DNA from: a virus
Lineage: Duplodnaviria > Heunggongvirae > Uroviricota > Caudoviricetes
Length of the DNA stretch: 15,879 bases
Reading direction: 5' to 3' (one strand)
Virus record (IMG/VR): IMGVR_UViG_2872158770_000005
Below the pieces are notes generated by a model. It saw nothing but the letters and a program-made list of their open reading frames with translations, ran no database searches and had not been told where the DNA came from. A program made the translations under genes and the position numbers. Positions 9,765-11,076 of the stretch are shown piece after piece (position 1 is the stretch's first letter; each line of letters starts with the position of its first letter).

Positions 9765-10130
9765 ATGGAATTTAAAGATTTACCGTCTGATGTACAGAAA
9801 ACAGCAGCTCATACATTGCATTCTGTGCTGCGAGAAATCGGGAAAGATATTGCAAGCGAGCCAGCAAAAGATCTGGCCCGGAAAATCAAGACCGCTTTCG
9901 TTGAGCTTTATAATGTTGGCACTGACTCTGAAACTGTCGAGACCAAGACCGTAAGTTCACCAATATTCTCACTTGAGCCAAGCGTATTATCAGGTGAAAT
10001 ATGCACCGAGATTTCCAGCGAACTGCTTCCGGTAATACGAGAAGCAATTCGCCGTCGCGGTTTGGATGGAAGTTATGATCATGACGTTCTGCAAGTTCTC
10101 AGGACAATGGTGACTTCACTGGGGATTTGA
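9765..10130 (+). CDS. Hypothetical prophage protein
   Basis: ORF starting MEFKDLPSDVQK with GAGG SD; the longer track start at 9753 overlaps the upstream stop and has no SD. Confidence 0.45.
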   Translation: MEFKDLPSDVQKTAAHTLHSVLREIGKDIASEPAKDLARKIKTAFVELYNVGTDSETVETKTVSSPIFSLEPSVLSGEICTEISSELLPVIREAIRRRGLDGSYDHDVLQVLRTMVTSLGI

Positions 10131-10254
10131 TCCCTGCGTCCTCTAAGCTTTTGATATAGCGGTCCTCCAAGAAGCGGTAAATTTTGTCGAAATCATCTTT
10201 TCCCTCTGGTTTATTCAGAGGATTACAGGACCCGTAAGTAGCGGCATACATTTC
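10099..10254 (-). pseudogene. 3' portion of a small ORF (about 66 aa before insertion) split by IS1 copy B
   Basis: Joining the flanks across the 9-bp target duplication restores one frame: MTKEEFVSYIFDKTV | EMYAATYGSCNPLNKPEGKDDFDKIYRFLEDRYIKSLEDAGIKSPVKSPLS, stop at 10099-10101. Confidence 0.35.
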
Positions 10255-10262
10255 AACCGTTT
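10254..10262. repeat. Target-site duplication CAACCGTTT (left copy) of IS1 copy B
   Basis: Identical 9 bp directly abut both IS1 ends (10254-10262 and 11031-11039). Confidence 0.9.
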
Positions 10263-10277
10263 GGTAATGACTCCAAC

Positions 10278-10781
10278 TTATTGATAGTGTTTTATGTTCA
10301 GATAATGCCCGATGACTTTGTCATGCAGCTCCACCGATTTTGAGAACGACAGCGACTTCCGTCCCAGCCGTGCCAGGTGCTGCCTCAGATTCAGGTTATG
10401 CCGCTCAATTCGCTGCGTATATCGCTTGCTGATTACGTGCAGCTTTCCCTTCAGGCGGGATTCATACAGCGGCCAGCCATCCGTCATCCATATCACCACG
10501 TCAAAGGGTGACAGCAGGCTCATAAGACGCCCCAGCGTCGCCATAGTGCGTTCACCGAATACGTGCGCAACAACCGTCTTCCGGAGACTGTCATACGCGT
10601 AAAACAGCCAGCGCTGGCGCGATTTAGCCCCGACATAGCCCCACTGTTCGTCCATTTCCGCGCAGACGATGACGTCACTGCCCGGCTGTATGCGCGAGGT
10701 TACCGACTGCGGCCTGAGTTTTTTAAGTGACGTAAAATCGTGTTGAGGCCAACGCCCATAATGCGTGCAGTTGCCCGGCAT
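10278..10781 (-). CDS. insB: IS1 InsB reading frame
   Basis: 167 aa, identical to copy A except S5C. Confidence 0.9.
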
Positions 10782-10975
10782 CCAACGCCATTCATGGCCA
10801 TATCAATGATTTTCTGGTGCGTACCGGGTTGAGAAGCGGTGTAAGTGAACTGCAGTTGCCATGTTTTACGGCAGTGAGAGCAGAGATAGCGCTGATGTCC
10901 GGCAGTGCTTTTGCCGTTACGCACCACCCCGTCAGTAGCTGAACAGGAGGGACAGCTGATAGAAACAGAAGCCAC
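10700..10975 (-). CDS. insA: IS1 InsA
   Basis: 91 aa, identical to copy A. Confidence 0.9.
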
Positions 10976-11030
10976 TGGAGCACCTCAAAAACACCATCAT
11001 ACACTAAATCAGTAAGTTGGCAGCATCACC

Positions 11031-11039
11031 CAACCGTTT
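11031..11039. repeat. Target-site duplication CAACCGTTT (right copy) of IS1 copy B
   Basis: See left copy. Confidence 0.9.
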
Positions 11040-11076
11040 TATCAAAAATATAAGAGACAAATTCTTCTTTAGTCAT
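11032..11076 (-). pseudogene. 5' portion (15 codons, MTKEEFVSYIFDKTV) of the small ORF split by IS1 copy B
   Basis: ATG at 11074-11076 with AAGGAA SD 7 nt upstream; frame runs into the IS1 terminus and stops after one extra codon. Confidence 0.35.

Follow-up and report, generated by a model that had tools for sequence, protein, structure and literature searches.

A 15,879-nt stretch of DNA from the tailed-phage record IMGVR_UViG_2872158770_000005 (the whole stretch is hereafter called the window) carries a complete copy of the insertion sequence (IS) IS1, here termed IS1 copy B, within a small open reading frame (ORF) of a lambdoid prophage. We conclude that a single simple IS1 insertion knocked out a real 66-codon prophage gene, a reading to which we give a probability of about 90%, and the evidence offers no contradiction, either to the insertion or to the ORF being real. 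On this reading the element entered AT-rich sequence at codon 15/16 of an authentic accessory gene (PHROG 34441), carried by a Rac/Qin/mEp460-like lambdoid prophage of the Shigella sonnei lineage, and made the usual 9-bp duplication. The gene lies on the opposite strand to an early-left operon comprising a repressor, PaaA2-ParE, DUF1391/YdfA, a 121-amino acid (aa) partner protein and a DicF-like small RNA (sRNA). Separation of the start codon, the Shine-Dalgarno (SD) sequence and any promoter from codons 16–66 leaves a 16-residue stub, and the element, placed in the path of the early transcript between the ydfA-like/121-aa genes and the DicF-like sRNA, is expected to exert polarity on what lies downstream. 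The small gene may have a promoter of its own, which would make its expression independent of the early-left operon, and its product may act with or against the C-terminal domain of the partner, subject to convergent transcription. The event itself is a routine IS1 knockout of an already annotated hypothetical phage gene.

Anatomy of the insertion and its empty sites

IS1 copy B is bounded by terminal inverted repeats, GGTGATGCTGCCAACTTACTGAT at the left (IRL, 11030 side) and GGTAATGACTCCAACTTATTGAT at the right (IRR, 10263 side), which match at 18 of 23 positions (coordinates of all features are collected in Table 1). It encodes insA and insB', both on the minus strand and therefore on the same strand as the interrupted 66-codon ORF, and it contains the A6C frameshift motif. 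The 9-bp sequence CAACCGTTT occurs exactly twice in the window, both times abutting an end of the element and with a spacing of 777, that is, 768 + 9; about 0.27 occurrences would be expected by chance. The initial annotation had described a simple IS1 insertion with a 9-bp duplication directly flanking both IS1 ends, and both statements hold, since the repeats abut the two ends and the empty sites carry one copy. The target stretch has a GC content of 32% compared with 48% for the whole window, and IS1 prefers AT-rich targets. Copy B is 98.7% identical to the RefSeq-annotated IS1B-family copy in locus L002 and differs by 1 nt each from copies A and C of the window (A being compared only over the 753 bp that lie inside the window). 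Its length and inverted repeats, its insA-insB' genes with the A6C site, and its 9-bp duplication with a single-copy empty site all agree with membership of IS1.

Uninterrupted alleles of the locus are found in close relatives. The IMG/VR prophage contigs L054 and L055 are approximately 99.9% identical to the window on both flanks and have no IS here, position 10262 being joined to 11031 through a single 9-bp copy. Loci L001 and L003 likewise lack an IS and have a single CAACCGTTT in the same context, and L002 retains an intact target site with a single CAACCGTTT, its own IS1 sitting elsewhere, 28 bp upstream of the small-ORF ATG. The reconstructed 1-kb locus is covered over at least 80% in 386 of 5426 complete Escherichia coli genomes, and its 276-nt core in 390. 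Both the 121-aa and 66-aa ORFs are annotated by PGAP in L001, L002 and L003 (WP_024165664/WP_001320327 and WP_024242775/WP_000159335), and the sequenced phage mEp460_ev081 has the same uninterrupted two-ORF arrangement. If the initial annotation was correct, IS-free loci in related genomes should have a conserved ORF; some 390 complete E. coli genomes, the near-identical prophage contigs and a sequenced phage have such loci, and the ORF is intact in them. An origin by IS1–IS1 recombination or as part of a composite element was rejected, because both flanks are collinear with the IS-free alleles and the target-site duplication is intact.

The interrupted allele also occurs outside the window. 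A contig of S. sonnei (L073, GCA_013852845.1) is 99.96% identical over window positions 2099–10284 and ends inside IS1 copy B, so that the junction is shared, and the S. sonnei proteins P0006 and P0007 consist of the 3' remnant of the 66-codon ORF fused to IS1 end sequence. This match and the IS1-fused remnants indicate that the window prophage is from S. sonnei or a very close relative.

The interrupted ORF and its convergent partner

Deletion of 10263–11039 yields a 66-codon minus-strand ORF, MTKEEFVSYIFDKTVEMYAATYGSCNPLNKPEGKDDFDKIYRFLEDRYIKSLEDAGIKSPVKSPLS, with its ATG at 11076–11074 and its TGA at 10101–10099; the frame and its AAGGAA SD sequence are those that the initial annotation had restored by removing the IS and one repeat. 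The product matches PHROG 34441 (phage protein, function unknown) over its full length, at 66/66 positions with an E-value of 2e-49, and the protein-database search that had been proposed as a check also recovered homologs with 54 to 97% identity. These homologs are 65 to 73 aa long, at 97, 88, 86, 71 (Cedecea), 57, and 54% identity; identity to P0002 is 52% in alignment A1, and P0044 is a more distant homolog of 73 aa. Length stays at 65–66 aa in homologs as little as 54% identical, and residues 1–16 are near-invariant, with only positions 3, 6 and 8 varying among the full-length 65–66-aa homologs.

Substitutions outside the overlap with the partner gene were counted by codon position in protein-guided codon alignments, giving [10,10,25] for the window versus Cedecea, [8,10,29] for L008 versus L005, and [3,1,11] for L004 versus L007. 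The third positions of the small-ORF frame are second positions of the partner frame, and the excess therefore cannot stem from the opposite strand. A third-position, synonymous excess together with a frame kept in diverged relatives is the behavior of a protein-coding sequence, and by this pattern of substitution the small ORF is a real gene. It is very improbable that the 66-codon frame is a chance antisense frame of the early-left operon and that IS1 broke only non-coding or spacer DNA: the ORF is indeed short, has no Pfam, NCBIfam or PADLOC match and overlaps another gene, and in Cedecea the partner frame is open across the entire antisense of the small ORF, but the third-position excess appears in every diverged comparison, length and start are retained at 54% identity with the first 16 residues nearly unchanging, the PHROG profile matches over the full length, and the ORF was kept after relocation in Cedecea.

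The convergent partner gene encodes an N-terminal domain (about 50 aa) that a disordered linker joins to a C-terminal domain (ELLPVIREAIRRRGLDGSYDHDVLQVLRTMVTSLGI). Its substitutions are also of the coding type and enriched at third positions, e.g., [25,11,39]. The C-terminal domain always accompanies the small ORF, being conserved in L004, L005 and L007 and weakly in L071, and all homologous loci examined have the small ORF convergent with, and overlapping, a gene that ends in this same domain. The overlap of about 30 bp noted in the initial annotation measures 32 bp in the window (10099–10130), as it does in E. coli types; L004 and L007 have an overlap of 56 bp, and that of L071, whose partner has just 63 aa and a weak similarity, is 35 bp. 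In Cedecea the pair has been relocated between cro and a cII-like gene, with the small ORF intact and, of the partner, the C-terminal domain alone kept. The partner N-terminal domain is found elsewhere with unrelated C-termini, at one such locus without a called small ORF and at another with unrelated antisense ORFs. The initial annotation had taken the overlap to lower confidence in both genes. This reservation is not upheld: both ORFs are of the coding type, and an overlap that recurs at every homologous locus examined is no argument against either gene. On these alignments, the overlap is a stable feature of a two-gene cassette and not an annotation conflict.

Three further observations concern this region. 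On the minus strand of the Cedecea loci L005 (approximately 3414–4014) and L006, opposite the small ORF, the frame of the partner C-terminal domain runs without a stop and is open for about 109 codons, and it was not called by the gene caller. The antisense ORFs of the Serratia locus L076, considered as possible relatives of the small ORF, are unrelated to it. An inverted repeat with a 12-bp stem, GCGAACTGCTTC-N11-GAAGCAATTCGC, was seen by eye at 10018–10052 in the coding region of the partner C-terminal domain, about 50 nt beyond the small-ORF stop on the minus strand and with no U-tract after it; a consensus scan found no terminator after the small ORF.

Consequences of the insertion and possible roles of the gene pair

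In the disrupted allele, codons 1–15 run into the element and end as a 16-residue stub, and the other 51 codons have no start signal. As read from the sequence, the disrupted copy is a null allele, because the start codon, the SD sequence and any promoter are parted from codons 16–66. IS1 exerts polarity whichever way it is oriented. The DicF of Qin arises by processing of a polycistronic transcript whose start is upstream of ydfA, no other or internal promoter having been found (bioRxiv 10.1101/2023.04.14.536235). Given this transcript, the polarity of IS1, and the position of the element in the path of the plus-strand early transcript ahead of the DicF-like sRNA, IS1 copy B is probably polar on this sRNA and on the downstream genes, which it would uncouple from the early promoter.

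The ~100 bp around the start of the small ORF have been struck by independent IS events in several strains. The upstream IS1 of L002 (4625–5392) has its own 9-bp target-site duplication, GGTTATTCG; in P0003 an IS1 end is fused at codon 3/4; and in P0042 transposase-like sequence, as judged by eye, is fused upstream. Several alleles, among P0009/P0010 and P0014–P0016, have the C-terminal half replaced by unrelated sequence.

The sequence between the small ORF and the dicF region contains a conserved leader motif (Table 1), which could be an extended −10 element (TGgTATCCT, 11117–11109), an anti-SD arm TCCTTCTT (11112–11105) pairing with AAGAAGGA, or both. The arm lies 15–22 nt upstream of the SD sequence and can pair with AAGAAGGA (SD, 11083–11090). 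An SD-sequestering hairpin is predicted by RNAalifold and by single-sequence folds, with 2 compensatory pairs among 10 sequences and z-scores ranging from −0.3 to −2.2; L004 (11 bp) and L009 have a longer, partly compensated stem (alignment A2). With covariation this thin and z-scores this modest, we do not claim the hairpin. The upstream block GCCTG...CAGGC...GGTGGTATCC was rejected as a feature peculiar to the small gene: approximately 1,500–1,700 E. coli genomes that do not have the ORF (a figure estimated from totals and sampled rows) show 100% conservation of the distal 44 nt of the block (11108–11151), and this distal part belongs to the common dicF leader.

Searches with the two proteins gave few leads. 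Neither the 66-aa nor the 121-aa protein has a match in Pfam, NCBIfam or PADLOC, and these same databases place neither cassette protein in a toxin-antitoxin or anti-phage defense family; in PHROGs, the small ORF and its partner belong only to families of unknown function. A profile search of 1.84 billion representatives returned 13 proteins, all from the same narrow family or noise. The AlphaFold2 (AF2) model of the 66-aa protein is a two-helix hairpin (helices 3–22 and 31–54) with a predicted local distance difference test (pLDDT) score of 79, for which Foldseek returned nothing with an E-value below 0.9 in PDB or BFVD. The AF2 model of the partner, a predicted helical hairpin, is of low confidence (pLDDT 59). 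The most likely reading, held with low confidence, is that the small protein is a predicted two-helix prophage accessory protein acting with or against the partner C-terminal domain.

Genes in such antisense positions of early operons often have lysogeny-expressed accessory functions. It is conceivable, and we propose it only tentatively, that the pair forms an undescribed two-gene cassette of enterobacterial lambdoid phages, in which the small gene lies antisense in an early operon (early-left in E. coli types, cro-cII-like in Cedecea) and would be driven by an extended −10 promoter of its own; the helical product would bind or counteract the partner domain, and convergent transcription, possibly together with an SD-sequestering leader, would adjust expression. 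If this were so, each of the repeated IS hits would have inactivated an accessory gene that is expressed in lysogeny. Rather doubtful is the proposal that the small gene and the partner C-terminal domain constitute a toxin-antitoxin-like or regulator/anti-regulator pair coupled via convergent overlapping 3' ends. In all lineages the two stay linked, while the partner N-terminal domain is exchangeable, both parts are predicted helical hairpins, and an SD-sequestering leader is possible; against this, there is no likeness to any toxin-antitoxin or defense family and no Foldseek match below E = 0.9, the partner model is of low confidence, and the overlap alone enforces co-inheritance.

That the insertion was selected is unlikely. 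By such an account it would have shut down an early-left operon made toxic by the DicF-like sRNA and by division inhibitors further downstream, or removed a costly small protein, and the clustering of independent IS events within ~100 bp (L002, P0003, P0042) would fit, as would the published toxicity of DicF and DicB when expressed. Yet the 32% GC of the target matches the preference of IS1, two further IS1 copies and an IS3-family element already disrupt the window prophage, which has no dicB downstream, and most database alleles are intact (135 members in the P0002 cluster, versus 1–12 for disrupted forms). We therefore view the clustered hits as a target hotspot in dispensable DNA, with selection for loss a minority possibility, and the insertion most likely as neutral decay, one of many IS hits in an IS-riddled prophage.

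Several points weigh against parts of this overall account of an IS1 knockout of a functioning accessory gene. That the small protein is made is a prediction from sequence. The same consensus scan found no convincing sigma-70 promoter upstream of the small ORF, and the proposed extended −10 (TATCCT) is a weak match. The proposed interaction with the partner is drawn from conserved linkage alone, and physical overlap partly explains that linkage. Finally, polarity on the DicF-like sRNA is argued by comparison with Qin and from the textbook behavior of IS1, and this prophage may have a separate promoter.

As an event, the insertion matters little, as it struck an accessory gene in an already defective prophage. 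IS1 insertion with a 9-bp duplication is the commonest form of gene loss in Shigella, where IS1 is the main source of IS insertion sites, accounting for 42–59% of sites in Shigella populations (PMC7373316). For annotation, the two ORF fragments (10099–10262 and 11031–11076) should be treated as one IS-disrupted pseudogene, and the S. sonnei "hypothetical proteins" P0006 and P0007 as IS1-fusion artifacts. The only mildly new point is the conserved two-gene cassette partly antisense to the early operon; a narrow small gene under purifying selection, convergently overlapped with one domain, may be worth a small experiment.

Prophage context and comparison with known systems

The window is a Rac/Qin/mEp460-like lambdoid prophage. 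Its minus strand encodes cro/YdaS-like, YdaT-like, replication (IstB/DnaA-like), DUF1627 and DUF977 genes and a BsuBI/PstI-type restriction-modification pair, and its plus strand the early-left operon, which is repressor-controlled and to which the small gene is antisense. The DicF-like sRNA lies downstream of IS1 copy B on the operon strand; its score of 38.8 bits is below the Rfam gathering score of 48 bits, so that it falls short of the threshold for DicF, and L001 has a terminator-like hairpin at the homologous place. Further along, the c4-a1b1-like site, isrK and C4 overlap the 5' part of the Rha/Ash ORF, in an arrangement that resembles the P1/P7-style antirepressor-immunity module.

Table 1 Positions in the window of IS1 copy B, the interrupted ORF, its partner and the surrounding prophage features
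Feature	Position	Strand	Remarks
IS1 copy B, complete	10263..11030	-	768 bp; IRL at 11030, IRR at 10263
insA of IS1 copy B	10975-10700	-	Pfam Zn_ribbon_InsA and HTH_Tnp_IS1 (PF03811, PF12759)
insB' of IS1 copy B	10781-10278	-	Pfam DDE_Tnp_IS1 (PF03400), E 5.9e-78
A6C -1 frameshift motif TTAAAAAAC in IS1 copy B	10718-10726		
Target-site duplication, left copy, CAACCGTTT	10254..10262		
Target-site duplication, right copy, CAACCGTTT	11031..11039		
5' fragment of 66-codon ORF, codons 1-15	11031..11076	-	now reads MTKEEFVSYIFDKTVG, TGA stop inside IRL
3' fragment of 66-codon ORF, codons 13-66	10099..10262	-	includes duplicated 9 bp and stop; severed from start codon and SD
SD sequence AAGGAA of small ORF	11083..11088	-	6 nt before ATG; GAAGGA, AAAGGA or GGGAGG in homologs
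Conserved leader motif GTGGTATCCTTCTT	11105..11117	-	31-38 nt from ATG in 6 diverged lineages; 32 nt in E. coli type
Convergent partner gene, 121 aa	9765..10130	+	PHROG 33007, E 4.4e-80
HTH repressor	8287-8817	+	
PaaA2-ParE toxin-antitoxin pair	8837-9321	+	between repressor and DUF1391/YdfA; absent at this position in L001, L002, L003
DUF1391/YdfA	9547-9753	+	
DicF-like sRNA with terminator hairpin	11264..11312	+	Rfam RF00039, full model length, 38.8 bits, E 7.9e-07
STnc100-like stretch	11324-11477	+	below Rfam cut-off
c4-a1b1 target-like site	11546-11598	+	below Rfam cut-off
isrK	11559-11635	+	above Rfam cut-off
C4 antisense RNA	11661-11748	+	above Rfam cut-off
Rha/Ash-family ORF	11524-12297	+	truncated by IS1 copy C
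IS1 copy C	12276-13043		simple insertion; 9-bp duplication TTTCCGGTT at 12267-12275 and 13044-13052; absent from L054
IS1 copy A	1-753		same orientation as B and C; left part outside window, target-site duplication beyond view
BsuBI/PstI-type restriction endonuclease	906-1988	-	inside prophage, adjoins IS1 copy A
Eco57I/N6-type methylase	1985-3817	-	paired with restriction endonuclease
IS3-family element	14723-15879	-	orfA (HTH_Tnp_1, 15577-15879, runs off window), orfB (rve, 14723-15541); fourth IS in 16 kb

Compared with IS1 of the IS1 family (IS1A/IS1B-type, of E. coli and Shigella), copy B is alike in its 768 bp, its ~23-bp imperfect repeats, its A6C site, its 9-bp duplication and its AT-rich target, and nothing notable sets it apart. 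The small ORF belongs, by its full-length profile match, to the same family as the PHROG 34441 and RefSeq hypothetical proteins (WP_000159335.1, WP_024242775.1), from which the window copy differs in being interrupted; the reconstruction carries S51 in place of the R51 seen in most alleles, and L054 and L055 possess an uninterrupted S51 allele.

A close counterpart in arrangement is the dicBF early-left operon of Qin in E. coli K-12, with which the window shares the order of repressor, DUF1391/YdfA, variable segment and DicF, the DicF region being 83% identical. In Qin, ydfB and ydfC occupy the operon strand between ydfA and dicF, whereas the same slot in the window holds the 121-aa partner and the antisense 66-codon gene; the window also adds the PaaA2-ParE pair and the isrK/C4/Rha module and is without dicB. 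K-12 has no homolog of the 66-aa or the 121-aa protein, and the K-12 comparison rejects YdfB and YdfC as homologs of the cassette.

A loose precedent for control of such a gene by a cis-antisense RNA is sieB of phage P22. SieB is roughly 190 aa long and membrane-associated. The small ORF, of 66 aa and soluble, has no likeness to it in sequence or size, and the 66-aa protein, with no Pfam match at E ≤ 0.01 and no fold match, gives no sign of SieB homology. In P22, sieB is an accessory gene of the early-left region whose mRNA meets the cis-antisense sas RNA (PMC12197685), and the small gene of the window is likewise an accessory gene in a lambdoid early-left region. If the tentative cassette reading is true, the arrangement of the small gene and its partner would be comparable in logic to that of sieB and sas.

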